20,199 nt of DNA from Candidatus Hydrogenedentota bacterium (GTDB lineage Bacteria > Hydrogenedentota > Hydrogenedentia > Hydrogenedentales > SLHB01), in assembly GCA_045863335.1 (NCBI GenBank), contig BTVY01000078.1, forward strand, positions 1 through 20,199, in the 5' to 3' direction. How positions within the stretch are numbered: the stretch's first letter is position 1; the number at the start of each line of letters is the position of its first letter. Positions 1,141 to 19,445 of the stretch are shown in pieces. The notes under the pieces were generated by a model. That model made no database searches. It was not told where the DNA came from and was given only the letters and a program-made list of their open reading frames with translations. The position numbers were made by a program, and so were the translations under genes.

Positions 1141-1257
1141 GGTTGCTCTCCCTTACCGTAGGTGTTTGCCATTTCCCTTGCAGCGCGGCCACTACGCAGT
1201 AGCTGTCGCGACCGTGATACCTGAACTGTACGGCGAAACGGGGAAACCAACAATGGC

Positions 1258-1295
1258 TGAACTACCGTATTTGGTGGGGATGGACTACCGTAATT
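1258..1295. promoter_or_regulatory. Tandem direct repeat, candidate operator upstream of the methyltransferase
   Basis: TGAACTACCGTATTT (1258-1272) and TGGACTACCGTAATT (1281-1295): 13/15 identical with a 23-bp period, lying between the LuxR regulator and the methyltransferase. Confidence 0.5.
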
Positions 1296-1354
1296 AACCT
1301 TCGCGATTAGGCACGCGATGTTCGCTAACGCAATCTGCAACAAAGGGTTGTGAG

Positions 1355-4240
1355 TCAAACCGAACTCAGTCCCAGTTCGGCGATACGGCGGGCGGCTTCG
1401 GTGCGGCTGCGGCAGTCGAGGCGGTCGAGGATGTGGGCAACGTGCATGTCGACGGTGCGCGGGCTGACGAAAAGTTTCTCGGCGATTTCCTTGTTGGTCA
1501 GCCCGTCGGCGAGGAGCCGCGCGACGTCGGTCTGGCGTTTCGTCAAGGCGATGTCGGAGGACTCGGCTGACTTCGAGCGGCGGCGCTCTTCCGCGGGTTC
1601 GCCAAGATCGTTCAGGTCGGCACCGATTCGGGAAGAGAGGGCACGCGCGCCGAGTTTCCGCATGGCGCGGTAGGCATTGCGCAAGTGCCCGACCGCTTCC
1701 TCCTTCGCGCCAGCCTGGGCCAGCGCCGCACCCGCACGCCACTCCGCGCGCGCGCGTTCGACGGGCACTTCGAGGGGCTCGAATCGCGTCGCGGCCTGTT
1801 TAAAATGATCCGCCGCTTCCTGGTACTTGCCGTCAACCATGGCGCGTTCGCCGAGCACGAACGCAAGCGCGGCAACCGCTTCCCGATGCCCCGAAGTGGT
1901 GGCCATTGTGGACAGCGCATTGGCGCAGATGGTCACATCGTCGGCGAGTTCCCGGCTGGCAAAAAACGTGGCCGCCGCGCAAAAGCCGGGGATCGCATCG
2001 TGATAGTCCTCCGTTTGCTCCCACATGCGGATGAACCGGCGGTAGGCATTGGCGGCTTCGTCGAGTTCGCCACTGGTCTCGTGGGCAAATGCGGCGAACC
2101 AAATTGTAAGAAACTCTCCGATAACGCCACCGAGAGCCTGAACGCCCGCGTTGGATTCTGCGATCATCTTCTTCGCGGGTTTCAGTTCGCCGCGATAGGC
2201 CTTGATCATCCCCATGACGCCTTTCGCCACAGCGTCGGGATACGGGATGCCCTCTTCGAGTTGCATGATCTCTTTGCAAAGATCGAGGCTTTGCCGCCAC
2301 TTGCCAGCCCGGAAAAGGACATACGACATGCAACCCATGCAGAGGTTGGTGTGGACGTTTTCGTTGCGGTCGCGGCAGTAATTTAGCGCGGTTGTGTAAG
2401 CCTCGCGCGCCGTGGCGAATTCGGAGCTGTATTCCGCGACGCCGGCAGCGTACCGGTACATCTCCGCGACCAGGTTGGGGGCGTTGAGACTTAAGGCGGT
2501 GGTCAGCGCGTCGTGGGCCAATGGGCGCGCGTCCTCAATCTGACCGAGCATGGCCGTTGCGTAGGCGAGAATGCCCTTGGCGCGGGCCTGGAGATCGGGA
2601 CGTTGCGCGTCGTCCGCGAGTTGGAGCGCCTCACGGGCCGTTTCAGTCGCGGGAGTGGGTTGGGCATTGATGATGTAACGCTCCGTCCGTTCCAACAACT
2701 CTATGACGGCCTCGGCTGGTAGGCCGGCTTCCTGGAAGGCGCGTGCGGCGTGGAACCGCGTATCGATTGCCTGCGCGTTCTCGCCGCGCAGTTCGTGCAG
2801 GGTCGCGATCGCGCGCAGTGCGCGCGCGCGGCGCAACGGGCCGGTTTGGACGGCAGGACTTTGGGTGTAGCGCTCCCAAACTTGAATCGCTTCGGCAATC
2901 AAGCCGACCGTTTGCGCGCAAGTCGCCTGTCGTTCCAGTGCGGCGGAGCGATTCTCCTCGGACTCGCCAACGGGCCAGGTCTCGAGCGCGCGTTCGTAGT
3001 TCCGGTACGCATCGCGGTATGCGTGGATGCCGTAGGAGCGGTCGGCGGCCGCGAGAAACGCCCGGCGCGCCCGATCCAATTCCGATGCTGCGGTCCAGTG
3101 ATGTGCAATTTGTTCCTGGGGTGCGTCCCGGCCTTCGAGCAGTTCGGCGACTTCGCGATGCAGCCTTCGACGGTCGGACCAGGGGACTTCCTCGAGTATT
3201 GCCTCGCGTGTCAACGTGTGGCGGAATGCACAGCGGCCGGGGAGCACTTCGGCGATAAACCCTGCATCCAGCAATTCACCTAATCCATCGTCGCCCGAGA
3301 CAATTTGCTTAAGGAAATCCGAATCGAATTCGTCGCCGATGACCGCTGCGACAGAAAGTTGAGCGCGCGCGTTTCCGGAAAGACGTTCGAGGCGGAGAGC
3401 GACCATATCTCGAATGGAAGCGGGAACGGGAACGGTACTATCCGGCACGGGCTCGAAACCGTGTTTGCCCTGCCGAATGAACGAACCCAGTTCCAGCGCG
3501 TCCGCCAGTTCCTCTATATAAAGCGGTAATCCGCGGGTTCGCTGAAACACCATTGTCCGCAGCGTCTGGTCGACGCTGCCGCCCAACCGTGCCGACAGGA
3601 GATCGCCGGTTTCATCTTCCGAAAGAGGCTCGACTGGGATCTCGCGGAGCATGCGCAGACGAAGCAACTCGCCCTTGAGCCGTCGGATGGGATGCCCGCG
3701 CCCGATCTCCTCGTCGCGATAGGTTCCGATCAGGACAAACGGATCGCCCTGAAGCCGCTCCGCGAGAATCGGCAGCAAATCCACGGTGGATTCATCGGCC
3801 CAATGCAGGTCGTCAAGAAGGAGCGCCATGGGATGCGATTGCGCTTTGGCCGCGAGGGCCGTCGCGATTGCCTCGACCAGAACGGCAGGATCCGCCAACT
3901 CCGGGACGGGTTGTTCCAACTCCGGCAGGAGAATTCCCAAGTATTTGGAAAGCGGACCGCACTCGTGAACATCCCCGCCGGCCTGGCGGAGGCAGTCACG
4001 TAGCGCGGCCGCGATAGGGCCGTAGGCCGCAGTGCCCCGTTCAATGGCACGGCCCCGGTACACGTTGAAGCCGCATTCCGAAAGCGAGTTGAGGGCGAGA
4101 TTGGTTTTTCCAACGCCCGGCTCGCCGGACAACAGAACTACCTGTCCCCCGCCCTTTGAGGCCGCGGTCAACAGCCGGTGGAACTGGGCACGCTCCTTGG
4201 CGTGCCCGATGATGCGTGACGCCTTGCACATGATACCCAT
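1355..4240 (-). CDS. Large ATP-binding LuxR-family transcriptional regulator (AAA_16/STAND ATPase, TPR-like repeats, C-terminal LuxR HTH)
   Basis: Walker A GEPGVGKT, Walker B LLLDDLHWAD, helical repeat middle, C-terminal LTKRQTDVARLLADGLTNKEIAEKLFVSPRTVDMHVAHILDRL. Start placed at ATG 4240 (alternative 4231) because the ORF-track start at 4405 overlaps the divergent gene. Confidence 0.9.
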   Translation of the reverse strand: MGIMCKASRIIGHAKERAQFHRLLTAASKGGGQVVLLSGEPGVGKTNLALNSLSECGFNVYRGRAIERGTAAYGPIAAALRDCLRQAGGDVHECGPLSKYLGILLPELEQPVPELADPAVLVEAIATALAAKAQSHPMALLLDDLHWADESTVDLLPILAERLQGDPFVLIGTYRDEEIGRGHPIRRLKGELLRLRMLREIPVEPLSEDETGDLLSARLGGSVDQTLRTMVFQRTRGLPLYIEELADALELGSFIRQGKHGFEPVPDSTVPVPASIRDMVALRLERLSGNARAQLSVAAVIGDEFDSDFLKQIVSGDDGLGELLDAGFIAEVLPGRCAFRHTLTREAILEEVPWSDRRRLHREVAELLEGRDAPQEQIAHHWTAASELDRARRAFLAAADRSYGIHAYRDAYRNYERALETWPVGESEENRSAALERQATCAQTVGLIAEAIQVWERYTQSPAVQTGPLRRARALRAIATLHELRGENAQAIDTRFHAARAFQEAGLPAEAVIELLERTERYIINAQPTPATETAREALQLADDAQRPDLQARAKGILAYATAMLGQIEDARPLAHDALTTALSLNAPNLVAEMYRYAAGVAEYSSEFATAREAYTTALNYCRDRNENVHTNLCMGCMSYVLFRAGKWRQSLDLCKEIMQLEEGIPYPDAVAKGVMGMIKAYRGELKPAKKMIAESNAGVQALGGVIGEFLTIWFAAFAHETSGELDEAANAYRRFIRMWEQTEDYHDAIPGFCAAATFFASRELADDVTICANALSTMATTSGHREAVAALAFVLGERAMVDGKYQEAADHFKQAATRFEPLEVPVERARAEWRAGAALAQAGAKEEAVGHLRNAYRAMRKLGARALSSRIGADLNDLGEPAEERRRSKSAESSDIALTKRQTDVARLLADGLTNKEIAEKLFVSPRTVDMHVAHILDRLDCRSRTEAARRIAELGLSSV

Positions 4241-4383
4241 AAGGGTAATATCAAGCCGGTTGTGATGTCCATGGTCCCAGCCGCGAAAGGCGGCGGTGGA
4301 CGTATTCGTTGCCTGGAACCATTTTGTCTTTATACTGAATACACCAAGGCGCGATGGACTGTATCGAGGAGAGGATGGAAGGG

Positions 4384-5877
4384 ATGTCTGCGGTATCGAA
4401 TTCACCCAACGAGGTCATCCTCGTCACGGGAGCGTCGGGTTATATTGGGGGCCGTCTTGCAACGCGATTGGAGGAGACGGGATATCGCGTCCGGTGCATG
4501 GCTCGGCGTCCGGCTGAACTGGAGGGACGTTTCCACGGCGATACCGAGATTGTCTTCGGAGACGTCAGCGATGCTGAGTCCCTCGGGAAAGCTTTGGAAG
4601 GCGTGTCGGTCGCGTACTATCTCGTCCATGCGCTGGGGGCTCGCGGGGATTTCGAATCGATGGAAACGCAGGCCGCGCGGAATTTTTCGGCTGCGGCAGA
4701 GGCGGCAGGGGTCGCGCTGATTGTTTATCTGGGAGGACTGGCGAGTGATTCGCCGGACCGTTCCGCGCACATGCGAAGCCGGCACGCCGTGGGCGAGATC
4801 CTGCGGGAGTCGTCCATACCCGTCGTCGAATTTCGCGCGTCGATCGTGATCGGCGCGGGAAGCTTGTCCTTCGAACTGGTCCGCGCGCTGGTGCGGCGAT
4901 TACCCGTCATGATTACACCGCGCTGGGTGCAGGTGAAGGCGCAGCCCATTGCCATTCGAGATGTGCTCGATTATCTGACGGAAGCGATCACCCTGGATCG
5001 GGAGCGAAGCCGGATCTACGAGATCGGGGGTGCGGACGCGCTATCGTACCTGGATTTGATGCGTGCCTACGCGACGCACCGCGGGTTGCGCCGGTTGTTC
5101 ATCAAGGTTCCGGTATTGACACCGTGGCTATCCAGTCTGTGGTTGAGTTTGGTTACGCCGTTGTTCGCGCAGGTCGGCCGCAAGCTCATCGACAGCATTT
5201 GTGTGGCCAGCGTGGTGCGCGATGAATCGGCGTTGCGTGATTTCTCCGTGAAACCCATGGGGGTTGCCGAAGCGATCGCGGAAGCACATCGCGAAGAAGA
5301 CGAGGCTTTCGTGCAGACCCATTGGGCGGACGCGCTTTCTACCATACCGGAAAAACGCAATTGGGGCGGGGTCCGGTTCGGTTCGCGCATTGTCGATTCG
5401 CGAACTGTGACGGTCGACACCGATCCGGCTACCGCATTTGCACCCATCCAGCGCATCGGTGGCCGGACTGGATGGTACTACGGCAATTGGCTCTGGCAAC
5501 TTCGAGGGCTGTTGGATCGCGCGGCAGGCGGCGTGGGGATGCACCGGGGCCGGCGCGACGCAACCGATCTGCGTGTGGGCGATGTGGTGGACTGCTGGCG
5601 CGTGGAGGCGATTGAACCCGACTCGCGGTTGCTGTTGTCGGCGGAGATGAAACTGCCGGGCCGCGCATGGCTGCAATTCGAGGTAAGGCCAGATGGAGGA
5701 TCGACCGTCATCCGGCAAACGGCCACGTACGATCCCGTCGGGCTACTGGGCTTGGCCTATTGGTACGTTCTCTACCCGATTCACGAATTTGTTTTCGCCG
5801 GCATGTTGCGAGGGATCGCCAAAGCGGCAGGCAATCCGCACGAACATCCAAGGAATGAGGAGGAGACCGATCGGTAG
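4384..5877 (+). CDS. NAD(P)-binding SDR-family oxidoreductase with C-terminal DUF2867 (YbjT-like)
   Basis: Rossmann motif ILVTGASGYIGG, AYYLVH, atypical SDR segment SAHMRSRHAVG, C-terminal IGGRTGWYYGNWLWQLRG...AEMKLPGRAWL. Purine-rich RBS before ATG 4384 (alternative 4375). Confidence 0.88.
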   Translation: MSAVSNSPNEVILVTGASGYIGGRLATRLEETGYRVRCMARRPAELEGRFHGDTEIVFGDVSDAESLGKALEGVSVAYYLVHALGARGDFESMETQAARNFSAAAEAAGVALIVYLGGLASDSPDRSAHMRSRHAVGEILRESSIPVVEFRASIVIGAGSLSFELVRALVRRLPVMITPRWVQVKAQPIAIRDVLDYLTEAITLDRERSRIYEIGGADALSYLDLMRAYATHRGLRRLFIKVPVLTPWLSSLWLSLVTPLFAQVGRKLIDSICVASVVRDESALRDFSVKPMGVAEAIAEAHREEDEAFVQTHWADALSTIPEKRNWGGVRFGSRIVDSRTVTVDTDPATAFAPIQRIGGRTGWYYGNWLWQLRGLLDRAAGGVGMHRGRRDATDLRVGDVVDCWRVEAIEPDSRLLLSAEMKLPGRAWLQFEVRPDGGSTVIRQTATYDPVGLLGLAYWYVLYPIHEFVFAGMLRGIAKAAGNPHEHPRNEEETDR

Positions 5878-5890
5878 AACGGTCTCCTCC
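5859..5890. terminator. Stem-loop between convergent genes (possible bidirectional terminator)
   Basis: GGAGGAGACCG (5859-5869) / CGGTCTCCTCC (5880-5890), perfect 11-bp stem; no clear U-tract. Confidence 0.45.
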
Positions 5891-5909
5891 GAAACAATCG
5901 CGTGATCCG

Positions 5910-7100
5910 CTACGCCGCAACCATTCCGTGCGGATCGATGACGAACTTCTTCGCGGCGCCTTTGTCGAAGTCTTTGTATCCCTTCGGGGCATCGTCGAGG
6001 GAGATCATGGTCACGTTGACCGCCTTGGCGATCTCGATCTTGTCGTGGAGGATGCACTGCATCAACTGGCGGTGGTACCGCATGACGGGGCACTGTCCTG
6101 TCGTAAAGCAGTGGGACTTGGCCCAACCGAGCCCGATGCGGATGCCGAGCATGCCGATCTTGGCCTTCTCGTCGATGGCGCCGGGATCGCCGGTCACGTA
6201 GAGTCCTGGGATGCCGATCGCGCCGCCGGCACGGGTGACTTCCATGGCGGCGTTCAGCACGGTCGCGGGATGTTCAGTCGAATGATCGCTGCCGTGACCG
6301 CGGGCTTCGAATCCGACGCAGTCCACGGCCGCGTCGACTTCCGGCACGCCGATGATTTGTTCGATCTGTTCCGCGAGTGTGGCGCTCTTCTTCAAGTCGA
6401 CCACTTCGCAGCCGAAACTTTTGGCCTGAGCGAGACGCTCATCGATCATGTCGCCGACTATGACGCAGGCTGCGCCGAGTAGATGACAGGATGCCGCGCT
6501 GGCCAAGCCGACGGGGCCGGCGCCCGCGACGTAGACAATGGTGCCGGGCCCGACACCGGCGGTGACAGCGCCGTGGTACCCCGTGGGGAAGATGTCGGAT
6601 AGAAGGGTCAGGTCCTTAATCTTCGCCATGGCCTGATCTTTGTCGGGGAACTTCAGCAGATTGAAATCCGCATAGGGCACCAACACGTACTCGGCCTGGC
6701 CGCCGACCCAGCCGCCCATGTCGACGTAGCCGTAGGCCGCGCCGGGGCGCGCGGGATTGACGTTGAGGCAGATGCCGGTCTTGCCTTCCTTGCAGTTGCG
6801 GCACCGGCCGCAGGCGATGTTGAAGGGAACGGAAACAATGTCGCCCTTGGAAAGGAACTCGACGTCGCGCCCGGCTTCGACGATCTCGCCCGTGATCTCA
6901 TGGCCGAGTACGAGGCCTTCCGGGGCGGTGGTTCGACCGCGGACCATGTGCTGGTCGCTGCCGCAGATGTTGGTGGAGATGATTTTCAGGATGACGCCGT
7001 GTTCGCACTTGCGATTGCCGAGCGCCAGCTTGGGGTAGTCGATGTTTTGGACTTCCACGACTCCCGGTTTGATGTATGCAACCCCTCGATTACCTGCCAT
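5910..7100 (-). CDS. fdhA: Glutathione-independent formaldehyde dehydrogenase (zinc MDR family, P. putida FdhA type)
   Basis: TNICGSDQHMVRGRT, GHEITG, structural Zn CGRCRNCKEGKTGIC, LSDIFPTGYHG, GAGPVG, C-terminal GYKDFDKGAAKKFVIDPHG; GGAGG RBS. Confidence 0.93.
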   Translation of the reverse strand: MAGNRGVAYIKPGVVEVQNIDYPKLALGNRKCEHGVILKIISTNICGSDQHMVRGRTTAPEGLVLGHEITGEIVEAGRDVEFLSKGDIVSVPFNIACGRCRNCKEGKTGICLNVNPARPGAAYGYVDMGGWVGGQAEYVLVPYADFNLLKFPDKDQAMAKIKDLTLLSDIFPTGYHGAVTAGVGPGTIVYVAGAGPVGLASAASCHLLGAACVIVGDMIDERLAQAKSFGCEVVDLKKSATLAEQIEQIIGVPEVDAAVDCVGFEARGHGSDHSTEHPATVLNAAMEVTRAGGAIGIPGLYVTGDPGAIDEKAKIGMLGIRIGLGWAKSHCFTTGQCPVMRYHRQLMQCILHDKIEIAKAVNVTMISLDDAPKGYKDFDKGAAKKFVIDPHGMVAA

Positions 7101-7340: not shown

Positions 7341-7408
7341 GACTCGGGATCGAAATCGGGATCGCAGATCGATACCGATGCCGATAGCGATCCCGATTTT
7401 CCCGAGTC
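7341..7408. repeat. Long imperfect palindrome built from ATCG/CGAT-containing hexamers (REP-like hairpin or terminator after hmuS)
   Basis: Outer stem GACTCGGGA (7341-7349)/TCCCGAGTC (7400-7408); inner perfect 13-bp stem AAATCGGGATCGC (7353-7365)/GCGATCCCGATTT (7387-7399). Confidence 0.65.
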
Positions 7409-7425: not shown

Positions 7426-8490
7426 TTACAGCCGGTGTTCGCGTTCGAGTTCGTTGCAGAGGTTGGTCCACTGCTCGAGTTCGGGGATACCGGGTTTGCG
7501 CTTGCCGAAGATGATGGCGAGGTCGCGGCCGCCGGCGTCGAAGAGTTCAATTCCGGTGACGACGCCGTCTTTCGTGGGCTTGCGCGTGAGCCACGCTTCG
7601 CTCACACCTTCTTCGCGGAGGTGCAGATTGAAGTCGGAGTCCATGATGTTAAACCAGCCGGGCTCGTCGAACAGACGCGCAATGGGGCCGGTGTGAATCT
7701 GGATGCAGCCGTGATTGCCGACGAATACCATGATGGGGAGTTCGGTCTCGGCGGCGCGGGTGAAGACGTTTCGATAGATGTCTTTCGCCATTGGGACGGC
7801 GTAGGGCTCACCGACGAGCCGGAACGCCTGCGTGCGGCCGGCCTTGAACTTCTTCAACATGGGATAGAAGTCGTGGGTGTCTTGCAGGTTTGCCCATGCG
7901 TCTCGCAATCCGCTCGCATCGATGGCTTCGTCGGGTTCGGTGGAAACCGCAATGATTACGGCGGAGACCGGCTGGTGCGGGTTCTGATTGACGGACCGGA
8001 ACGCACCGACGATGTCGTCGAAGGCATCCGCGGCTTCGTCACCGACGAAGACTTTGTGGATGTGGTGCCCCGCGGCGTCGAAGAATTGGATACTGCGTTT
8101 GTATCCCTTGCTTTCTGGGTTGTGCGCGGCGAAGGCCATGGACCAGTTCTTCATGAAGAGGCGGAGGTCGATGCCTTCGTCGAGCACGAGGCCGGTTTGA
8201 TCGTGGAAACTGACGGGGTGGTAGTTCCCCTTTCGCTCGTGGACGGTGTGCTCGTTGCGCGTGATGGTCATGACGCGGCCGAGATTCTTGAACTGCCTCA
8301 GCAGTTCCTGCCAGTCGCCGTCGAGACGCGTCACGCTGTCCCCGCATTCGACAGCGAGGAGTTCGGCTTCGCTAACGCCGAAGGCGTGGGCCGCATCGTG
8401 GCGAAAGGCGCGGCGATTTTCCGATTGGTATTCTTCCCAGCGGCGGCGAAGATCCGCCACCCGGTTGAATTCGTGTGTAGTCGCAGTCAT
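7426..8490 (-). CDS. hmuS: HemS/HmuS/ChuS-family heme-degrading or heme-trafficking protein, 354 aa
   Basis: DAAHAFGVSEAELLA, MTITRNEHTVHERKG, IDLRLF (conserved Arg), SIQFFDAAG..IHKVF, DTHDF (heme-ligand His), IMVFVGNHGCIQIHTG, FNLHLRE, FGKRKPG. AAGGAG RBS before ATG 8490; ATGA overlap with the hmuV stop. Confidence 0.92.
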   Translation of the reverse strand: MTATTHEFNRVADLRRRWEEYQSENRRAFRHDAAHAFGVSEAELLAVECGDSVTRLDGDWQELLRQFKNLGRVMTITRNEHTVHERKGNYHPVSFHDQTGLVLDEGIDLRLFMKNWSMAFAAHNPESKGYKRSIQFFDAAGHHIHKVFVGDEAADAFDDIVGAFRSVNQNPHQPVSAVIIAVSTEPDEAIDASGLRDAWANLQDTHDFYPMLKKFKAGRTQAFRLVGEPYAVPMAKDIYRNVFTRAAETELPIMVFVGNHGCIQIHTGPIARLFDEPGWFNIMDSDFNLHLREEGVSEAWLTRKPTKDGVVTGIELFDAGGRDLAIIFGKRKPGIPELEQWTNLCNELEREHRL

Positions 8491-9317
8491 AGCGTCGCTC
8501 CTTGATGTGAAGACGTTAGACCCCAAACGGGGGATTCTTTTGTGGTGGAATCTGCGGCCCCGACAGGCACGACCCAGGGGCACCCGGACGGGTGCCGCCA
8601 AATCACGCATTCGAGGCCGAAACAGGTCCGGATGTTTTCGGGAGTCAACACCGCCTCCGGATCGCCCGACGCTGCCAAGGCGCCGCCGTTCAAAAGCAGC
8701 ATGCGGTCGGCGTACGCGGAAGCGAGATTGAGGTCGTGCAGCACGGCCACGATGCATCCGCCTGCGTCAAGGAATCGCCGGCACCAGATCATGAGTTCGA
8801 TCTGGTGCAGGGCGTCGAGATGATTGGTCGGCTCATCGAGCAACAAGAGGCGAGGCTGTTGCGCCGCGACGCGGGCCATGTCGACGCGGCGTTTCTCGCC
8901 GCCCGAGAGGGTCGGGTAGGTCCGTTGCGCGAGTTCGGATACGCCCTGGCGACCCATGGCGTCGACGGCGATTCGGTGGTCGTTTTCGCTGAAAGCCCAA
9001 CCTCCGCGCCATGGCGTACGGCCCATGAGGGTCACCTCGTAGGCGGTGAAGGGAAACCCGGTGTTCATCTCCTGCGCGAGGCAGGCGCGAATGCGGGCGA
9101 GATCCTCAGTCGCCATCGATAAGACCGGCGTCTCTTCGAGGGTCACGGTACCGGAAGCCGGTTGCAGTTCGCCGGACAACATGCGGATCAGGGTGGACTT
9201 GCCGGAGCCGTTGGCACCCGCGATGACCCAGAACTCGCCGGGCTCGACGCGCATGGATACGTCGCGCACGAGCCACCGGCCTTCCACCCGATATCCCACG
9301 CGGTCGGCGCTAAGCAT
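8487..9317 (-). CDS. hmuV: Heme ABC transporter ATP-binding protein
   Basis: Walker A GANGSGKS, signature LSGGEKRRV, Walker B LLLLDEPTNHLD, H-loop VLHDLNLASAYAD. Start MLSADRV at ATG 9317 overlaps the end of the permease gene. Confidence 0.9.
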   Translation of the reverse strand: MLSADRVGYRVEGRWLVRDVSMRVEPGEFWVIAGANGSGKSTLIRMLSGELQPASGTVTLEETPVLSMATEDLARIRACLAQEMNTGFPFTAYEVTLMGRTPWRGGWAFSENDHRIAVDAMGRQGVSELAQRTYPTLSGGEKRRVDMARVAAQQPRLLLLDEPTNHLDALHQIELMIWCRRFLDAGGCIVAVLHDLNLASAYADRMLLLNGGALAASGDPEAVLTPENIRTCFGLECVIWRHPSGCPWVVPVGAADSTTKESPVWGLTSSHQGATL

Positions 9318-10326
9318 AGAAGGCCTCGCGCCGGTTCCGCAGGAGCAACCAGAGGAAGAAGGGTCCGCCGACGATGGCGGTGAGCACGCCGACGGGTATC
9401 TCGGCGGGTTGTGCGACCGTGCGGGCTGCGGTGTCGGCTCCGATGAGCAGGACGGCTCCGCCCAGCGCGGCGCAGGGCAGGAGCCTACGGTTGTCCGCGC
9501 CGCAGCACAGACGGAACAGGTGCGGCACGACAAGTCCGATGAAGCCGACGCCGCCCGCGGCGGCCACCGAGCCGCCGACGGCGAAAGCCGCGCCCCAGAT
9601 GATGCGGCGCTGTAACGCGTGGACGGGCACGCCGAGATGGTAGGCGTCCCGTTCGCCGAGGGCGAGGGCATTAAGCTTGCCGCCCAGAGGCACGAGCAGG
9701 ATGAGCCCGAGCGCGATGGGCGGCACAACGGCGAAGGCCAATCCCCAGTTCGCCGAGGTCATGCCGCCCAACTGCCAGAAGGTGATCCCGCGCAGCTCTT
9801 CCTCGTCGCTGAGAAAGGCGAAGAGGCCGACGCCGGCGAATGCGATGGCATTGAGGGCGATCCCGGTCAACAGGAGCGTCGACATTTGGGTGGCGCCGCC
9901 GGCACGGGCGATTCGCCAGACGATCCAGACGATGGCCAAGCCGCCCACGAAGCCTGCGACGGGCAATCCCCATACCGCGAGCAGGCCGGTTGCTCGTGCA
10001 AAGACAATCCACGCGGAGACCGCCAGACCCGCACCGGCCGTCACGCCGATGAGGCTGGGATCCGCGAGGGGATTGCGGAACATGCTTTGCAGCGAAGCGC
10101 CGCTGACGGCCAGGGCCGCGCCGACCAAACCCGCGATGAACACGCGGGGCAGGCGGATGTACAACAAGATGCGGTACCCCTCGTCTTCGAGATGGCCCCA
10201 CAGGATCGCGGGGATTCGCAAGGCGTCGATGGGATACGCACCGGCGGCGGCCGCGACGCAGATCACCGCCGGAAGCGCCAAGGCCAGAGTCAAGAGCGCA
10301 ATGCGATAGGCGTGCGAGACGTTCAT
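9310..10326 (-). CDS. hmuU: Heme/iron-chelate ABC transporter permease (FecCD/BtuC family)
   Basis: IRLPRV, FRNPLADPSLIGVTAGA, FWQLGG, LNALALGERDAYHLG, GFIGLVVPH, EIPVGVLTAIVGGPFF. Start at ATG 10326 has an ATGA overlap with the hmuT stop. Confidence 0.9.
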   Translation of the reverse strand: MNVSHAYRIALLTLALALPAVICVAAAAGAYPIDALRIPAILWGHLEDEGYRILLYIRLPRVFIAGLVGAALAVSGASLQSMFRNPLADPSLIGVTAGAGLAVSAWIVFARATGLLAVWGLPVAGFVGGLAIVWIVWRIARAGGATQMSTLLLTGIALNAIAFAGVGLFAFLSDEEELRGITFWQLGGMTSANWGLAFAVVPPIALGLILLVPLGGKLNALALGERDAYHLGVPVHALQRRIIWGAAFAVGGSVAAAGGVGFIGLVVPHLFRLCCGADNRRLLPCAALGGAVLLIGADTAARTVAQPAEIPVGVLTAIVGGPFFLWLLLRNRREAFYA

Positions 10327-11207
10327 GGATCTACCTTTGCGACCGCGTCGCGGGGTTGATAGAGGCGTTTCCACAAGGTAAGCGCGGCTTCGCCTGTACG
10401 GGGACCGAATCCGGAGAGCAGGACGTCGTCCATGGCGACGATGCGTTTGTTCTTGCCGGCGGGGGTCTCCTTGATACCCGGACGTTGGAGGAGCGCATCC
10501 ACGCCACCACTCGCTTCCAATCCGTCCGCATAACACAGGATTACGTCCGGCTGCGCCGCGACGACGGCCTCTGGATTGAGCGATTTGTATCCCTCTAAGC
10601 CGGGGATCGCGAAGGAGCCTCGCGCCAGTTGCACCATGGCGGCGGCGTTGCTGTCTTCACCCATCATCATCGCCACGCCGGGCCGCAGGTAGAGGATGAG
10701 CACGCTGAGTTTCGGATGGTCCCCCATCTCCATGACGGCGCGTTCGAGTTCGCCCATGTCCTTGTCGATGGCCTCCTTCAGTTCAACGGCGCGGTCTTGT
10801 TTGCCGAGAAGTTGGCCGAGTACGTCGATGCGCTCTTTGGCAATATCGACGCCCGGTTCATCCGGCAGACGGACGACATCGACATGGGCCTGCTCCAGGA
10901 GATGCATGCCGGGACCGCTCATGGCGCGGTTGCGGCCTATCACGAGGGTTGGCCGTTCCGCGAGCACGGCTTCGACGTTGATTTGATGCCCGTCGCTGAT
11001 GACAGGCAAGGACTGGGCGCTTTCCGGATAGGTGGAGCCGGAATCGCGGGCGACGACGTGATCGCCCACGCCGAGGGCGTAGAGGGTTTCGGTCGTGCCG
11101 GCGTCGAGACTGACAATTCGCGCTTCGGCGCCGATGGCAAGGGGGGGCGCCCCCGCACTGAGTGCGAGGATGGCGATGGTGAATGCAGTTATTGATTTGC
11201 AACTCAT
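10323..11207 (-). CDS. hmuT: Heme ABC transporter substrate-binding protein with Sec signal peptide
   Basis: Signal peptide MSCKSITAFTIAILALSAG...; class III SBP motifs RIVSLD, TETLYALG, YKSLNPEAVVAAQPDVI, TPAGKNKRIV, GFGPR; candidate ligands His74 (GHQINVE) and Tyr173 (LYLR). AAGGA RBS before ATG 11207. Confidence 0.87.
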   Translation of the reverse strand: MSCKSITAFTIAILALSAGAPPLAIGAEARIVSLDAGTTETLYALGVGDHVVARDSGSTYPESAQSLPVISDGHQINVEAVLAERPTLVIGRNRAMSGPGMHLLEQAHVDVVRLPDEPGVDIAKERIDVLGQLLGKQDRAVELKEAIDKDMGELERAVMEMGDHPKLSVLILYLRPGVAMMMGEDSNAAAMVQLARGSFAIPGLEGYKSLNPEAVVAAQPDVILCYADGLEASGGVDALLQRPGIKETPAGKNKRIVAMDDVLLSGFGPRTGEAALTLWKRLYQPRDAVAKVDP

Positions 11208-11235
11208 TGGTGGATTCCTTTTCCGATTGGTGCCG

Positions 11236-12210
11236 TTAGCTGCCGTGTTCGTCGAGCTGACCGAAGACGCGGGCGACGCCCGGAAGGGCCGGCACATCTT
11301 CTTCGTATCTCACGAATTCGACATGGCCATCGAGGTAGAGCACATTCGAGCCACCTGGCACGTGGTTGTACTCGCTGGGAACGGTGCTCAGACGGTCGGT
11401 CATGATCCAGATCTCGCTCTGGGACCGGGCGCTGGAAGCGGGATTGTTGATATCCGTCACGAGAAAGCGCTCGATGCCTTCACGGAGACGGAAGATGGTG
11501 TCGCCGCCGGCATTGCCATTTCCCGGGCTGATCGAACCGAGATCGATGTCGGCGCCGGGATTCCCTGCGAAGAAGTCGCCGATGGCCATGGCGATTCCCC
11601 AGACCAATTGGGCGGGCCCATCGCCGGTTGCGGCGGGCGTGAGCGTGGAGATGGTTTCCGTGGGATACTCGGGCCCGACCCGGTCGAAGATGTACCCGCT
11701 GTACCAATAGCTTTCGTCGGCCAACGGCAACCCGCGGTCGTTGGAGAACTGGCTGAAGGGCGGGCCCGGGATGGGCGCAAAACACACGCGGTGGATTTCG
11801 CTTTCACCGGTAACGGGGTTGTTGAAGTCCTCCGGACTTAGGGAGGAATCGGAAGGGCACACCATGATTGCAGGGTCGGTCAGGTATTCGGGATAGATAT
11901 CGGACATCTGGGGGTTCAGCCAGTGGGTCGGCGCGCCGACGAAAGGCTGGGCGGGAGCGACCAACGCGCCCGTGTCACAGTTGACGATGGGTTCCCAGGA
12001 GGTCTGCATCCTGGGGAGCTGCTCGCCGTTGCTCTCGGACGCGAACATTTTGAAGACCAGTCCCCATTGTTTGAGGTTGTTCTGGCAACTGGCCCGGCGT
12101 GCGGCTTCGCGGGCGCGGGCGAGGGCGGGTAGCAGAATTGCGGCCAAAATGCCTATAATGGCAATGACGACCAGCAGTTCGATCAGGGTGAATCCACGGT
12201 TCGTCTTCAT
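11236..12210 (-). CDS. DUF1559 (SBP_bac_10) prepilin-type N-terminal cleavage/methylation protein with C-terminal H-X9-DG motif, 324 aa
   Basis: Class III signal RG|[46 protein letters not shown] motif, C-terminal [18 protein letters not shown]; AGGAG RBS at 12217-12221; ends 28 bp before hmuT. Confidence 0.92.
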
Positions 12211-12224
12211 AGGTGTCTCCTGCT

Positions 12225-12299
12225 GGGCCTGTCGCGCGGGAAATCCCGATAGATTTGCCGATCCGAGGGATTTCAGCCGGCAGGCCCGGTTCTTTTTTT
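12225..12299. promoter_or_regulatory. Long stem-loop in the operon leader; reads as hairpin plus T-tract on the + strand
   Basis: GGGCCTG (12225-12231)/CAGGCCC (12281-12287) and GAAATCCC (12240-12247)/GGGATTTC (12267-12274); T7 at 12293-12299; directly next to the RBS of the DUF1559 gene. Confidence 0.55.
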
Positions 12300-12331
12300 G
12301 AGTGCTAACCGATGTGATTAAGGCAGGTTAA

Positions 12332-12352
12332 TTAAGGAGAGGGAAGTGTCAT
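12332..12352 (-). CDS. Possible 6-aa leader peptide (uORF) MTLPSP
   Basis: The minus strand reads GGAGG-tcgcct-ATG ACA CTT CCC TCT CCT TAA: a strong SD with a 6-nt spacer just downstream of the predicted promoter. Could be chance. Confidence 0.3.
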   Translation of the reverse strand: MTLPSP

Positions 12353-12393
12353 AGGCGACCTCCAAACAGCTAAGACCCACACAGCTTATAAAT

Positions 12394-12433
12394 AGCATAC
12401 ATTGGAGTCATATAAAAATCAAGTGATTTTTAT
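12394..12433 (-). promoter_or_regulatory. Sigma-70-type promoter of the pilin-hmu operon, overlapped by a perfect 10-2-10 palindrome (candidate repressor operator)
   Basis: Minus strand TTGATT (12422-12417) - 17 nt - TATGCT (12399-12394); ATAAAAATCA-AG-TGATTTTTAT at 12412-12433 covers the -35; AT-rich patch in a GC-rich window. Confidence 0.65.
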
Positions 12434-12538
12434 CTATTTCATTTGCTCACTATACATAACTTAGTGCGCCCGCGCCCGTCCGGCCACTGTGCTAGAATTA
12501 GTAACAGCAAGGAACCATATGGGATGGAGGGCGCAGGG

Positions 12539-12985
12539 ATGAAAACGGTTGGCGAAATCATCGGGAACCGGGAGCCGTACTTCGTTGAGCCGGAACGAAC
12601 GGTGCGGGAAGTCGTCGAGTACCTCGCAACTAAGGGTGTGGGAGCGGTTGCGGTATGCGAGGACGGCGCAGTCGTCGGCGTGTTTTCGGAGCGGGATGTT
12701 GTGCGGCGGGTGGTTGCCGAAGGACGCGATGCGCAAACCACGCGCATTCGTGATGTGATGACCGGGGATGTTGTCTCTGTTTCCATTGAGGATTCACACC
12801 ACGCAGCGAAGGCGCTTATGCTCGACAAGAAGTTCCGGCATCTCGTCGTGATCGATCGCGAGAAACGGTTTCGGGGGTTCGTTTCGATGCGGGACCTGTT
12901 GGAGGTTGACCTGGCCGAATCGAGAGAGTTGATTCATTCGCTCAACGACGGATACTACGAGCACCAGTTCAAGCCTGGCGAATGA
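12539..12985 (+). CDS. Stand-alone CBS-domain pair protein, 148 aa
   Basis: GVGAVAV..GAVVGVFSERDVVRR, IRDVMT, KFRHLVV..GFVSMRDLL; GGAGG RBS at 12526-12530. Confidence 0.88.
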   Translation: MKTVGEIIGNREPYFVEPERTVREVVEYLATKGVGAVAVCEDGAVVGVFSERDVVRRVVAEGRDAQTTRIRDVMTGDVVSVSIEDSHHAAKALMLDKKFRHLVVIDREKRFRGFVSMRDLLEVDLAESRELIHSLNDGYYEHQFKPGE

Positions 12986-13138
12986 GCGTGACCAGCGCGA
13001 ACGTGCGTGGGTGATTCGATGGCGAGGCAACAAGGAAGGCCATCCCGTTGGACAGCACGTCGTACGGAATGGCCCTGCTGTTGAGTATCTCGAGATCACC
13101 GATAGTGGTTTCCGGCGAACGCGGAGCGCATGCCGCGG

Positions 13139-13300
13139 CTACGACTGTGCGTCGACGGCGTGCTCCTGGATCTCTTCTCCGCCTTCCTCAATATCCTCCC
13201 CAAGACCGCGCATGGTGTTGCAGCCGCTCAGGGCAAGCAGGACGACAGCGAGGACCGTCACCGCTGCTCTCCTCAACAATCCAATAGTTCTATCTTCCAT
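13139..13300 (-). CDS. Entericidin EcnA/B-family small lipoprotein, 53 aa (absent from the ORF track)
   Basis: Manual translation MEDRTIGLLRRAAVTVLAVVLLALSGCNTMRGLGEDIEEGGEEIQEHAVDAQS: lipobox LSG|C followed by the family signature CNT.RG.GEDI..GG..I; AGAAAGG RBS. Confidence 0.85.
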   Translation of the reverse strand: MEDRTIGLLRRAAVTVLAVVLLALSGCNTMRGLGEDIEEGGEEIQEHAVDAQS

Positions 13301-13380
13301 GTTTCGCCGACCTTTCTGTTGTGACCTGCCGAACCTGGCCGGGTTGTAGCGATACTATTCAAACACCGGATTACGATCCG

Positions 13381-13554
13381 TTACACCACCGGGCGCCGGC
13401 CAATCAGACCGCTGATCAGGAAGACCAGGAATAGCACCAGGAACACATAGAACAGGATTTGCGCAATGCCAGCGGCCACACTCGCGATGCCGCCAAATCC
13501 GAACAACATCGCCACCAACGCCACGATGAAGAACACCAAAGCCCAATAGAGCAT
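13381..13554 (-). CDS. DUF1328 / UPF0391 small membrane protein (YtjA-like), 57 aa
   Basis: [49 protein letters not shown] matches the family pattern; GGAGG RBS before ATG 13554. Confidence 0.92.
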
Positions 13555-13604
13555 AGGGAACCTCCCTTCACACGTTGCTGTGTTTGAAGTCACCGGAAGG
13601 GAGG

Positions 13605-13620
13605 TGCAAGCCATGTGCCA
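13605..13620 (-). promoter_or_regulatory. Sigma-54 (-24/-12) promoter for DUF1328 and entericidin
   Basis: Minus strand TGGCAC-ATGGC-TTGCA, a full consensus match about 50 bp upstream of the ATG. Confidence 0.8.
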
Positions 13621-13758
13621 AGAATTCATGGTGTGATTCTCGCCAATACTGCGGACTTTCGCGCGTGCCCGGGGCGGGGATCGTATAGAACAGTTACAGT
13701 CTGTATAAATCCCATGCCATCCCCAGAATGGATCGGTGGTAAATAAACGGTTTGTGAT

Positions 13759-13774
13759 TGGCACATGATTTGCG
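13759..13774 (+). promoter_or_regulatory. Sigma-54 (-24/-12) promoter for the lipoprotein gene
   Basis: Plus strand TGGCAC-ATGAT-TTGCG, about 35 bp upstream of ATG 13809. Confidence 0.78.
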
Positions 13775-13808
13775 CTCTCCGAAGGCACCTCAAACTGGAG
13801 GTTGCAGC

Positions 13809-14291
13809 ATGCGACACATCATGAGGCTCATGACGAGTGCTTCGGTGGCGCTATTAGCAGCCGGATGCCAGTACGGCGAACCGGATCGCGACGACGCCAG
13901 TGGAAGGAGTTCGGACGTGGCCGAGGAGACACGGGCTTCGCAAGAAGAACTGGTAGATGAAGGTTCGCACGCAACGCCGGATCAGGAAGGCCTTACAGCG
14001 ATCGACCACGTTGCGGCGCGCGAAAAGTTTAATGAAGAGCTTGACCAATTAAACGCGCGAATCGATGACGCTGCCGAAGCGTTGAGTCGAATGGGCGAGG
14101 ATGCTGGAGATGACCTCAACGAGGCGTTAGCTGAACTGAGAATGGACCGCGACGCCGTTGCGAAAGACATTGAAGATATCAGGAAGGCGTCCGCTGAAGT
14201 GGTGGCAGTCGCCGTGGAAGCCGTCCGGGAAGGACTGGACGAGTTGGGCGACGCGTTGGAGAATTTATCTGCGGAACTCAAGGAAACTTGA
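13809..14291 (+). CDS. Hypothetical acidic coiled-coil lipoprotein, 160 aa
   Basis: GGAGG RBS; signal peptide ending in lipobox LAAG|C; D/E-rich amphipathic helical C-terminal half. Confidence 0.75.
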
Positions 14292-14363
14292 CGCCTCGCC
14301 GGCCGTAACGGCTGGCCGGAGCGTCTTGTAGAGCTTCACTCCCCCCCAACCCCGCTGTGGCGT

Positions 14364-14392
14364 GCCCGCCGGTTCTCCCAGAACCGGCGGGC
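14364..14392. terminator. GC-rich perfect hairpin between the convergent lipoprotein and csbD genes
   Basis: GCCCGCCGGTTCT (14364-14376)-CCC-AGAACCGGCGGGC (14380-14392), 13-bp stem; only a weak U-tract. Confidence 0.5.
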
Positions 14393-14502
14393 GCTCCGCT
14401 TCTTGACGCGTCGGTTTGTGCGGGCGGAGCCGATACGCGACACCATGAAACGGCGCCACGCCGTTGCTTTCGACGCGACGCCGGTGGGGTATTCGATTCC
14501 GT

Positions 14503-14703
14503 TTACTGCAATCTATCGACTAATTCGGACATTTCGCGTTCGACTTGCTCGCGGGATTCGCCGTACTTGGCTTGAATCGTTCCCAACAGCCGATCGCGCT
14601 GGCCTTTCATTTGGTCCAGTTCATCGTCGGTCAATTCGCCCCATTTCTCGCGGAGTTTTCCTTTGAACACGCCCCAATTGCCTTCAATCTGATCCCAATT
14701 CAT
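14503..14703 (-). CDS. csbD: CsbD/YjbJ-family general stress protein, 66 aa
   Basis: MNWDQIEGNWGVFKGKLREKWGELTDDELDQMKGQRDRLLGTIQAKYG matches the YjbJ pattern; AAAGGAG RBS. Confidence 0.92.
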   Translation of the reverse strand: MNWDQIEGNWGVFKGKLREKWGELTDDELDQMKGQRDRLLGTIQAKYGESREQVEREMSELVDRLQ

Positions 14704-14747
14704 AGTGTCTCCTTTCTACACGTGGATCCGCATGCCTCAGTGGAGCG

Positions 14748-14763
14748 TGCAAGAGTTGAGCCA
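14748..14763 (-). promoter_or_regulatory. Sigma-54 (-24/-12) promoter for csbD
   Basis: Minus strand TGGCTC-AACTC-TTGCA (TGGC-N7-TTGCA, correct GG-N10-GC spacing), about 45 bp upstream of the ATG. Confidence 0.7.
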
Positions 14764-14821
14764 GCTATGCAGACCAATCGTCACCGTGGAGGTCCGGGGG
14801 AGAATCGAATCGCGGGTCGGG

Positions 14822-15502
14822 TTAGCGTGAATTGTCGCGGGGCGTAATCCCGAGCACGATATTGAACTGGGCGGCAAGCTCGCCAGTCGCGGATTCGGGT
14901 ATGGGTGTGAAATCGACAAGCACGGCGTCGCGGGATGCGCCTTCCGGTATGGATTGAAGGATTCCATCGCGCGCGTTCATGGGGTGTCCCTTGACGTAGC
15001 ATTGGGTCGTGAATGTTTCGTGACCCGGAACCGCTACGGCCACGTGGATATGCGGAGTCCGCTGGAAACTACCGGGAGCGTAGGGCACCGGTTTGATGGT
15101 GCGGAAGCGGTACTCGCCGGTGGACCCGGTTTCGAAGCGGCCGAAGCCTTGAAAGTGCCGATCCAACCGTTCCTGGCCGGGGCTTCCCGAGTGGATGTAG
15201 ACCCCGTTGTTATCGACTTGCCAAATCTCCACGACGGCTTTGTTGACGGGATTGCCTTTGGGGTCGAGCACCCTTCCGCTGAGGTGCGAGATCTCACCGA
15301 CCGCGGGCGTCGTAGAGTCGCCGAGGATGATGAGGTCATTGTCGCGGTCCAGTGGAAGGTGATCGGGATAGAAGGGTCCTTTGGTCTGTCGCGGGGTCAG
15401 CGTAAGGGCCTCCGCGAACGCACCTGGGGCTGTCAAGAACGCGGCGCTCAGGGCGACGCGTTCGAGAAATGTTCTCCGTTGAATCCGCACTGACGATGCC
15501 AC
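14822..15502 (-). CDS. Intradiol ring-cleavage dioxygenase family protein (protocatechuate 3,4-dioxygenase beta-like) with Tat signal
   Basis: QRRTFL twin-arginine signal; GPFYP, VEIWQVDNNGVYIH, YRFRTIKPVPY and RTPHIH supply the 2 Tyr/2 His Fe ligands; GTG start. Confidence 0.85.
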   Translation of the reverse strand: MASSVRIQRRTFLERVALSAAFLTAPGAFAEALTLTPRQTKGPFYPDHLPLDRDNDLIILGDSTTPAVGEISHLSGRVLDPKGNPVNKAVVEIWQVDNNGVYIHSGSPGQERLDRHFQGFGRFETGSTGEYRFRTIKPVPYAPGSFQRTPHIHVAVAVPGHETFTTQCYVKGHPMNARDGILQSIPEGASRDAVLVDFTPIPESATGELAAQFNIVLGITPRDNSR

Positions 15503-15642
15503 GGTGCCCTGCCCTCTGCTCCGGAACCCTTGTTTGTGTTTAGGAGAACATCCTGCCGCAGTGAATGATTCCGGGCCGGAACGGCTTGCAGCACGTTCCG
15601 GCCCGATGCAAAAACTGTGGTCAGGAAAGCACTCCGGGCAGC

Positions 15643-16386
15643 TTAGCCCTCTTGCCGGCCAGCGTCATCGTCGTCACGCCGGTCACCCCGCCCCTCGCTG
15701 CCGCTCTCACCACCACCACGGTTACCGCGATACGTGGTCGCTGTTTTCCAGGTAGCGAGTTGCTCTTCGGACAGCACTTCAGCAAGGGCGGTATCGAGAC
15801 TCGATTTCGATTCCTGAGCCTTGGTCCGGACCGATTGCCAGTCCTGCTGCGCGAACGCTTCGCGCATGGCGGCATCCGATTCGACGACGTACCCTGCGAC
15901 GAGTTCGAGAGCCTTGTTGAGTTTTTCATCCTCCAACCCGAATCCCGCGAGGGTGTTGGCCATACGATCCCATTGGCGGCTGAAGGTGCCCAAGGTGGCG
16001 GTGGCCTTTTCGGCCGCGTCGGGCGAGAGAAACTCCGCCAGTGCGGCTTTCAGTTTAGCCCGCTCTTCATCAGCGGCTTTCCGGTAGGCTTCGAAACGGC
16101 CCGGGCCGCGCTCGCCGGAATCTGCCAGCTTGGCGACGGCGGCTTCGAGGCTCGACCGGCTCGCGCTGTATACCTCGGCCACCTTGACCGCTTCGTCCAT
16201 GGTGAGGTCGAGACTGGCGGCAACGCCTTTCGCCTGCAAGGTCCATGCGGCTTCCCGGTCGGCATCGGAAAGGCGAGAACCGCCAGGCCCTTGCGCGTGC
16301 GCAGGGAATGAGAATGTGGCCGCTACCGCAATCACTGAGGCAATGGCGAGACTTCGGGGTAACGTGTATCGAAGGTACGGAGTCAT
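15643..16386 (-). CDS. Hypothetical secreted alpha-helical protein, 247 aa
   Basis: AGGAG RBS; signal peptide ending in AHA|Q; two similar helical units ending LAEFLSPD / LAEVLSEEQ; Gly/Arg/Asp-rich tail. Confidence 0.7.
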   Translation of the reverse strand: MTPYLRYTLPRSLAIASVIAVAATFSFPAHAQGPGGSRLSDADREAAWTLQAKGVAASLDLTMDEAVKVAEVYSASRSSLEAAVAKLADSGERGPGRFEAYRKAADEERAKLKAALAEFLSPDAAEKATATLGTFSRQWDRMANTLAGFGLEDEKLNKALELVAGYVVESDAAMREAFAQQDWQSVRTKAQESKSSLDTALAEVLSEEQLATWKTATTYRGNRGGGESGSEGRGDRRDDDDAGRQEG

Positions 16387-16513
16387 CTTGCGTTCTCCTT
16401 ATGGGAATTCGTGCACCTGCGGCCATAGCGTACAATGCCGCACCACCTGTGGAACCCCGGCCGGCCCGTCTGAGTTCCGCGGACAACTTGCAGTGAAACC
16501 CCGCCAAAGGGGG

Positions 16514-16542
16514 TTGCCGGAACGACAAACTCCCCCTAGAAT
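16514..16542 (+). promoter_or_regulatory. Putative sigma-70 promoter for the molybdoenzyme operon
   Basis: TTGCCG (16514-16519) - 17 nt - TAGAAT (16537-16542), about 40 bp upstream of ATG 16581. Confidence 0.5.
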
Positions 16543-16580
16543 GTAGGGGCTGTTCCCCTCCTGGTACATGGAGAGTTCCT

Positions 16581-17057
16581 ATGGCGACCATCACGTTTAC
16601 CCTAAACGGTGCCGCTCAGACTGTGGAGACCGATCCCGAACGGCTACTCCTGGAGGTTCTCCGGGAGGATCTGGATCTGACTGGAACCAAATACGGATGC
16701 GGCGAAGGGAGTTGCCGGTCGTGCACGGTCCTCGTGGATGGACGGCCGCTCGCGTCGTGCCAAGTGCCGATTGCGAAGGTTGAGGGCAAGGACCTGATCA
16801 CGATCGAGGGGCTTGCCAAAGGCGAGACCTTGCATCCGGTACAAGAGGCGTTCATCGCGGAGGGGGCGATGCAGTGCGGCTACTGCGTGCCGGGGATGAT
16901 CCTCACGGCGGTGGCGCTGCTGGAGCACAATCCGAAACCCACGCGCGGAGAGATCGTGGAGTTTATGGATGGGAACCTCTGCCGCTGCTGCAACTACGTG
17001 AACATCGTCAACGCGGTTGAAGCCGCATCGAAGTCGATGCAGGAGGCGAAGGCGTGA
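16581..17057 (+). CDS. 2x[2Fe-2S] small subunit of a xanthine-oxidase-family molybdoenzyme (IorA/CoxS-like)
   Basis: GTKYGCGEGSCRSCTV...SC, TIEGL, QCGYCVPG, GNLCRC; GGAG RBS. Confidence 0.93.
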   Translation: MATITFTLNGAAQTVETDPERLLLEVLREDLDLTGTKYGCGEGSCRSCTVLVDGRPLASCQVPIAKVEGKDLITIEGLAKGETLHPVQEAFIAEGAMQCGYCVPGMILTAVALLEHNPKPTRGEIVEFMDGNLCRCCNYVNIVNAVEAASKSMQEAKA

Positions 17058-19198: not shown

Positions 19199-19254
19199 GA
19201 GCGTATTCCACCCGAACCCTATGATGTCGCCTGGCGCGACCAACGGATAGAACG

Positions 19255-19330
19255 GGTCCACTGATGTCGCAGATTGCCGCTGACAAACACAAGATTTGAG
19301 GTCCACAGATTGCACAGATTTTCACAGATT
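19255..19330. repeat. Short tandem CACAGATT-type repeats in two degenerate ~30-bp units
   Basis: CACAGATT at 19304, 19313 and 19323; an upstream degenerate unit GGTCCACTGATGTCGCAGATTGCCGCTGAC at 19255 parallels GGTCCACAGATTGCACAGATTTTCACAGAT at 19300. Confidence 0.6.
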
Positions 19331-19445
19331 CAATACAGGAGAATATCTATAAGCTACGTGCATCAGAAGAAAGTAGTCGCGCGTGATTGACGTTGGCGAT
19401 CGCCGCGACATGGGTACCATCGTCACCGTATAAGCTCCAGCATGA

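Follow-up and report, generated by a model that had tools for sequence, protein, structure and literature searches.

In a 20,199-nt stretch of contig BTVY01000078.1 from a Candidatus Hydrogenedentota bacterium (the window in the following), the gene for a type IV prepilin-like DUF1559/H-X9-DG protein leads an operon of heme importer genes. The prepilin belongs to a single DUF1559 clade whose genes stand in the receptor's place before two unrelated partners of heme receptors, hmuT, as in the window, and DUF6607, in further genomes of the phylum. The prepilin-hmu operon is real, conserved and, so far as the literature was searched, undescribed. The initial annotation, made from the window's sequence, had interpreted the prepilin as a substitute for the outer-membrane heme receptor, and the existence of the second context supports this interpretation. 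The source genome (G000; 6.75 Mb, 99.4% complete) was compared with a panel of 135 genomes of the phylum Hydrogenedentota (G001, G057 and so on).

A prepilin gene at the head of a heme importer operon

The five genes of the operon are all encoded on the minus strand. The prepilin gene (11236..12210, 324 aa) is separated by 28 bp (11208..11235) from hmuT (10323..11207; PF01497), which encodes a periplasmic binding protein grouped with heme binders, and this is followed by the genes for a FecCD-family permease (hmuU, 9310..10326; PF01032, 279.7 bits), an ABC ATPase (hmuV, 8487..9317; PF00005, with an NF010068 score of 258.9 bits just below the cut-off of 261) and a cytoplasmic heme carrier or degrading protein with two HemS domains (hmuS/hemS, 7426..8490; PF05171). 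The overlaps of hmuT/hmuU, hmuU/hmuV and hmuV/hmuS amount to 4, 8 and 4 bp. Open reading frame (ORF) coordinates and family scans thus bear out the layout given in the initial annotation, including its remark that the window holds no gene for a TonB-dependent receptor, TonB/ExbBD, a NEAT or an HtaA protein, none of which was found among the 16 window proteins scanned.

The prepilin carries all motifs of the DUF1559/SBP_bac_10 (PF07596) and H-X9-DG (TIGR04294) family, with PF07963, PF07596, TIGR02532 and TIGR04294 all above cut-off (N-methyl motif 37.2, PF07596 40.8 and TIGR04294 25.3 bits, versus cut-offs of 21.2, 23.3 and 19). The closest solved structures of its neighbor HmuT are heme binders (5GJ3, E 4.7e-44; HmuT 3MD9, E 2.1e-35; also 5B58), and the match to B12 binders (BtuF) is far weaker (E 6e-7). 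HmuS matches PhuS (4IMH, E 2.5e-85), and its H205 aligns with a PhuS histidine that we take to be a heme ligand position. The operon therefore has the features of Hmu/Hem/Phu importers in its FecCD permease, its HmuV ATPase (2 bits below the model cut-off) and its HemS protein with the histidine.

In the hmuRSTUV, hemRSTUV and phuRSTUV systems, as here, HmuT-, HmuU-, HmuV- and HmuS-type genes form one operon with a probable iron repressor, and in the available text of an article on the canonical hemin uptake layout, heme uptake of Gram-negative bacteria is described as TonB-dependent (PMC11002078). In contrast, the source genome has neither a heme-type receptor nor a TonB_C match, a prepilin gene leads the operon, HmuT is devoid of the proximal tyrosine, and the operator appears to be of the DtxR type instead of the Fur type. 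Two defining features of TonB-dependent heme uptake are thus missing from the operon, which keeps the inner-membrane half. This half (HmuTUV, HmuS) is of a known kind, and the novelty would lie in the capture step.

One clade in front of hmuT and DUF6607

An orthologue of HmuT is encoded in 9 of the 135 genomes, which belong to four genera and two families, and in all nine a DUF1559 gene of the clade is located directly upstream of hmuT. The linkage is therefore not unique to the source genome. None of the 66 other DUF1559 paralogue loci that were checked is followed by hmuT, hmuU or hmuS. The linkage is not due to chance, because the source genome contains 44 paralogues with a DGH motif and yet only one clade precedes hmuT, in nine of nine genomes. 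It should be noted that an hmuUVS contig of G129 stops short of hmuT and is uninformative in this respect, and that stand-alone HemS-like genes (G068, G074, G128, G130 and a second locus of G129) were kept apart, with neither hmuTUV nor a clade gene near them. A second type of HemS-like gene, which stands alone, occurs in genus g45 (L029:9696-10907, L030:9508-11088, L109-L111) and has an apparent signal peptide; in one copy, which precedes an ApbE-DUF2271 gene, there are EF-hand-like motifs that stay under the cut-off.

Seven close orthologues of the prepilin are not accompanied by hmu genes, and in all seven cases the next gene downstream encodes DUF6607. This protein is found in 15 of the 135 genomes, and a clade gene lies directly upstream in 14 of them (twice at contig ends), a TonB receptor in none. 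The exception is G066, in which the DUF6607 gene (L125:3581-4700) and the clade gene (L150:7407-8600) are on separate contigs; by eye both have the same promoter layout, the site at the DUF6607 gene scoring only 8.9 bits. Of five plasmid records from outside the phylum, four have a TonB receptor next to DUF6607, two of these receptors being above the heme-receptor cut-off of TIGR01785 and two having HmuY alongside. Among metagenome loci (the best 80 of at least 583, ranked by likeness to a Sphingomonas protein and interrelated), 61 had at least 1 kb of upstream sequence and were counted as informative. In 57 of the 61 the upstream gene encodes a receptor that best matches two heme-type receptors, and DUF1559 precedes DUF6607 in none. 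DUF6607 thus stands directly behind the lead gene in the Hydrogenedentota just as in the cassettes with a heme-type TonB receptor (Sphingomonadales-like) or with a TonB receptor and HmuY (Bacteroidota), whereas the identity of the lead gene differs. No paper on DUF6607 was found in the literature searched, and the family is now tied to heme-receptor loci. The idea that a gene of the Stenotrophomonas hemA operon might encode DUF6607 was dropped, the term 'DUF' not occurring in the available text of PMC11002078.

A search with the variable region yielded 26 clade genes in 25 of the 135 genomes, of which 9 precede hmuT, 13 precede DUF6607, 2 lie beside a CbiX-like gene, and one each precedes a PepSY-TM gene and an aldo-keto reductase gene. 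A FastTree phylogeny of 145 proteins, from which the first 45 residues had been removed and proteins without a DGH motif or outside 200-450 aa had been omitted, placed 8 hmu-linked and 12 DUF6607-linked proteins on one branch (support 100, stem 0.51), with none of the 125 other rows inside. In a wider database the clade has 69 members, set off by a sharp gap in E-values from 1.6e-55 to 5.6e-19.

The initial annotation had suggested looking for one clade with conserved histidines or tyrosines that are missing from paralogues, and such a clade, with histidines of this kind, was found. H96 (codon 11925-11923), in the motif APTHW that had been listed as a candidate ligand, is conserved in 69 of 69 members and absent from the 125 paralogues and from 149 outgroup representatives. 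A further histidine near the C-terminus, H322 (codon 11247-11245), had been overlooked; it is kept in all 67 ungapped rows, and although 4 of the 149 outgroup representatives have a histidine among the last seven residues, none has both. The other candidates are not specific for the clade: H140 of the EIH motif is present in 41 of 69 members, and the tyrosines Y109, Y168 and Y170 (PEY, YWY) are family-wide. W72, C78, F90 and C143 are invariant in the 69 members, and the prepilin cleavage site between Gly and Phe as well as Glu5 are invariant in 18 aligned clade proteins, both being shared by the whole family. Taken together, the alignments suggest that the prepilin likely binds heme via the two clade-specific histidines H96 and H322.

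An AlphaFold2 model built with 150 rows (predicted local distance difference test 94.1, predicted template modelling score 0.88) has a helix of residues 9-59; H96 is part of the strand 93-100, and the helix 310-322 ends with H322. With the model as query, Foldseek did not match any solved structure at E<=0.001. Its best-ranked rows were pilins, aligned in the N-terminal helix only, and sequence matches to solved pilins span residues 1-74 at most. Matches in the ESM Atlas were confined to unnamed or DUF1559 clusters. The predicted complex of the head domain and HmuT with heme included scored 0.01 and gave no usable answer. Covariation was not used as evidence because the signal was noisy (214 rows, effective number 163; H96-H322 rank 5642 of 37,675 pairs, L98-L319 rank 123, T95-H322 rank 360).

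Proposed heme capture in genomes without a detectable TonB heme receptor

The source genome contains a single gene with PF00593 and plug domains, the product of which scores 84.9 bits with the heme-receptor model TIGR01785 (cut-off 316.85). Downstream of this gene are a YfiR/HmsC-like gene and a kinase-like ORF (C7:46208-52225). The TonB_C domain (PF03544) had no match in this genome, in a search that was positive in 3 of 14 control genomes, and MotA/ExbB-family genes are present. Within the phylum, 43 of 135 genomes have any match to PF00593, and none has a match to TIGR01785 above the cut-off; 10 of the 25 clade-bearing genomes are devoid of PF00593. Most of the TonB-type receptor genes examined in clade-bearing genomes have a YfiR/HmsC-like gene downstream, in most cases together with a kinase gene. 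These receptors look like sensors and not like importers, because of their YfiR and kinase neighbors and because TonB_C was not matched in the source genome. The initial annotation had asked whether these genomes lack TonB-dependent heme receptors; none above the cut-off was found, and in the source genome no co-regulated receptor of this kind was detected elsewhere, as the sole TonB-type receptor is not of the heme type and no operator-like site precedes it.

Machinery for a filament is encoded in the source genome, with seven secretin matches above cut-off and with clusters resembling a type II secretion system and PilMNOQ, which were read by eye from ORFs. In addition, two short tandem genes with secretin domains (about 384 and 460 aa) are located behind a lipoprotein-like gene (C46:15164-18720) and encode a candidate channel.

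The proposed mechanism would start with a DtxR-type repressor that releases the operon under iron limitation. The prepilin would be cleaved and, as a minor or tip subunit, incorporated into a pilus or pseudopilus passing through a secretin, and the protein would bind heme with H96 and H322. Retraction of the filament would bring the bound heme into the periplasm, where HmuT-U-V would take over its import, and HmuS would receive it in turn. From the sequences it is quite probable that the prepilin binds heme at the front of the uptake pathway; the complete route via pilus and secretin would be rated just above an even chance. For the explanation as a whole, in which a heme-binding minor pilin captures heme at the outer envelope for the importer and no TonB is detectable in the cell, the odds seem modestly favorable. 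If true, a receptor of the pilin family would provide another kind of passage through the outer membrane, in a genome where TonB is not detected, and the very large DUF1559 family would obtain a concrete and testable ligand. The size of the family is illustrated by 167,849 cluster representatives with a match to the clade profile (E<=1e-10), a count that may include other pilins.

Competence pili use a substrate-binding minor pilin, for example ComP. In the comparable filament uptake attributed to the Akkermansia MUL2 pilin locus in the available text of PMC13174399, as with ComP and as proposed here, a pilin-family protein fronts the import of a nutrient or of DNA; the cargo is DNA or a glycan in those cases, and the head of the present prepilin has no match to a solved structure in Foldseek, only its N-terminal helix being pilin-like. 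Pilins have also been linked to iron acquisition, namely PilA2 of Legionella pneumophila and the major pilin of Synechocystis, both implicated in low-iron growth (PMC13170364). According to the accessible part of that article, both are major pilins, for which a link to heme is not shown and which have no importer operon of their own, and PilA2 acts without PilQ, PilT and PilD. The DUF1559 family has been described as heavily expanded and was found in detergent-soluble fractions of Tuwongella; the available text (PMC8567305) gives no ligand, whereas the clade has its own histidines and heme-linked neighbors. A published account of a heme-linked DUF1559 protein or prepilin in Hydrogenedentes was not among the literature matches listed, with most subscription journals outside the search.

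Several observations weigh against capture of heme by a pilus subunit. The role of the prepilin is read from sequence and a predicted model. HmuT has an aspartate in the column where its solved heme-binding homologues have a tyrosine, presumably the proximal heme ligand; two residues further, H74 is invariant in nine of nine orthologues. The 15 genomes with DUF6607 encode neither HemS nor an HmuT orthologue, so that the inner-membrane step is unexplained there, and the tie of DUF6607 to heme consists in gene neighborhood alone. Four of the 26 clade genes have neighbors other than hmuT and DUF6607, and the genomes of the phylum are mutually related and are not independent trials. G001 (on a 3-kb contig), G057 and G134 each contain one unclassified TonB-type receptor, one of which adjoins a TonB_C gene; no operator-like site was found at these three receptors. 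Column-shuffled versions of the operator matrix described below give equal hit counts (0-4 versus 2 at 14 bits, 0-10 versus 5 at 12.5 bits). Furthermore, the Legionella pilin aids growth at low iron in the absence of PilQ, PilT and PilD, and thus a pilin need not work in a pilus (available text of PMC13170364).

An alternative that seems unlikely is that the prepilin binds heme but remains in the inner membrane, held there by its pilin helix, and serves as a periplasmic scavenger for HmuT or DUF6607, with heme crossing the outer membrane via a general pore or an open secretin. The conserved histidines and the linkage would be accounted for equally well, the operon contains no pilus gene, and the pilus-independent action of a pilin in low-iron growth provides a precedent. 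However, the invariant cleavage site and Glu5 of the 18 clade proteins would be expected of an assembled subunit, although they are family-wide; in two separate contexts the position of the gene is that of the outer-membrane receptor and not that of a periplasmic carrier; and HmuT already serves as the periplasmic binder.

It is rather improbable that instead of heme these bacteria scavenge iron in another form or another tetrapyrrole, for example an iron chelate, siroheme, coenzyme F430 or a corrinoid. The missing tyrosine of HmuT would agree with such a cargo, as would the CbiX-like or PepSY-TM neighbors in three cases and the genes resembling sulfite reductase and PAPS (3'-phosphoadenosine-5'-phosphosulfate) reductase that, read by eye, are back to back with the cassette in G044, G050, G038 and G015. 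Yet HmuS retains its histidine, the nearest solved relatives of HmuT are heme binders (E 1e-44 versus 1e-7 for BtuF), the partner receptors of DUF6607 are of the heme type, and the source genome has a separate FecCD system, its only other one and distant from all DUF1559 paralogues, together with a riboswitch-controlled paralogue for B12. The chances are slighter still that the prepilin gene is an iron-regulated passenger, encoding an adhesin or pilus modifier that shares the promoter of the heme genes and has no contact with heme. The 44 paralogues in the source genome, the record of pilin genes induced by low iron (PMC13170364, in its available text) and the solitary clade gene of G066 are compatible with a passenger, but this would not be expected to be a single clade with two unrelated heme-receptor partners and two clade-specific invariant histidines, at near single copy (26 genes in 25 genomes), and 0 of 66 paralogue loci precede hmuT, hmuU or hmuS.

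Capture by pilin-family proteins might extend to other cargo. Directly upstream of a different prepilin/DUF1559-like paralogue of the source genome are two tandem cobalamin riboswitches (C3:41373-42996), and another paralogue precedes a PepSY-TM gene. From 73 riboswitch matches listed in 41 genomes, 30 loci were examined, and in 12 of these a gene with a prepilin motif follows within 900 bp. The riboswitch-linked paralogues fit a general role of the DUF1559 family as receptor substitutes. Tentatively, and with somewhat less than an even chance, DUF1559/H-X9-DG proteins might be interchangeable cargo-binding pilus subunits that replace TonB-dependent receptors in TonB-poor phyla, so that a single retractile pilus/secretin machine would serve for the import of heme, B12, metals and further cargo, each with its own paralogue, the present clade being the bis-histidine heme receptor.

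Promoter, probable operator and flanking genes

The promoter of the operon (12394..12433, minus strand) consists of a -35 element at 12422-12417, a 17-bp spacer and a -10 element at 12399-12394. Of 25 clade upstream regions, 24 have an equivalent element with a score of more than 17 bits, and the remaining one is truncated at a contig end. A simple sigma-70 scan did not list this promoter and listed none before hmuT, where an operator-like site was not found either; the single promoter predicted earlier was thus recovered by comparison, and an independent promoter of hmuT was not detected.

A 10-2-10 inverted repeat (12433-12412), for which the possibility of a Fur box was considered, overlaps the -35 element, and the spacer holds a degenerate second copy of a 19-bp operator-like site at 12441..12459. 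The symmetric 19-bp matrix was derived from the promoters of 17 relatives; neither the source genome nor the two genomes nearest to it were included, and four poor sites were omitted. In the source genome the site at 12441-12459 is the second-best match (14.0 bits); the first precedes dtxR-feoB, and the fourth and fifth precede two other DUF1559 genes, so that four of the five best sites precede dtxR or DUF1559 genes. Because the hit counts equal those of the shuffled controls, the support for the operator lies in the identity of the genes that follow the top sites. The site resembles what we take to be a DtxR box, and it is probably bound by a DtxR-family iron repressor. The repressor gene downstream of the best site is located about 0.7 kb before feoB (C12:108164-111696), and the two further DUF1559 paralogues with an operator-like site are at C15:87029-89339, followed by a PepSY-TM gene, and C6:54672-56686.

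The 5'-leader contains a conserved hairpin (12225..12287, minus strand) between an A-run and the ribosome-binding site, with a predicted -34 kcal/mol for a 104-nt segment. Like stems occur in many clade leaders, and the hairpin is present in a single copy in the source genome; on the plus strand it resembles an intrinsic terminator. Rfam had no match in the window. The sequencing run X1, labelled RNA, covers genes and flanks evenly and has very long contigs, and therefore it cannot show transcription; X2 and X6 contributed small shares.

Upstream of one clade gene, divergent ORFs resemble cas9 and cas1 when read by eye (L040:878-4931). Just beyond the hmuS stop codon, an inverted repeat with 13-bp arms (7353-7399) probably terminates the transcript, and the next gene, encoding a dehydrogenase, has a separate sigma-70-like promoter at 7292-7264. 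Two ORFs of the window (15643-16386 and 19446-20123) had no Pfam match. The flanks of the operon (61-7100 and 12521-20123) encode a methyltransferase, a LuxR/AAA regulator, an NAD-binding DUF2867 protein, a zinc dehydrogenase, a CBS protein, a dioxygenase-like protein, and 2Fe-2S and molybdopterin subunits.

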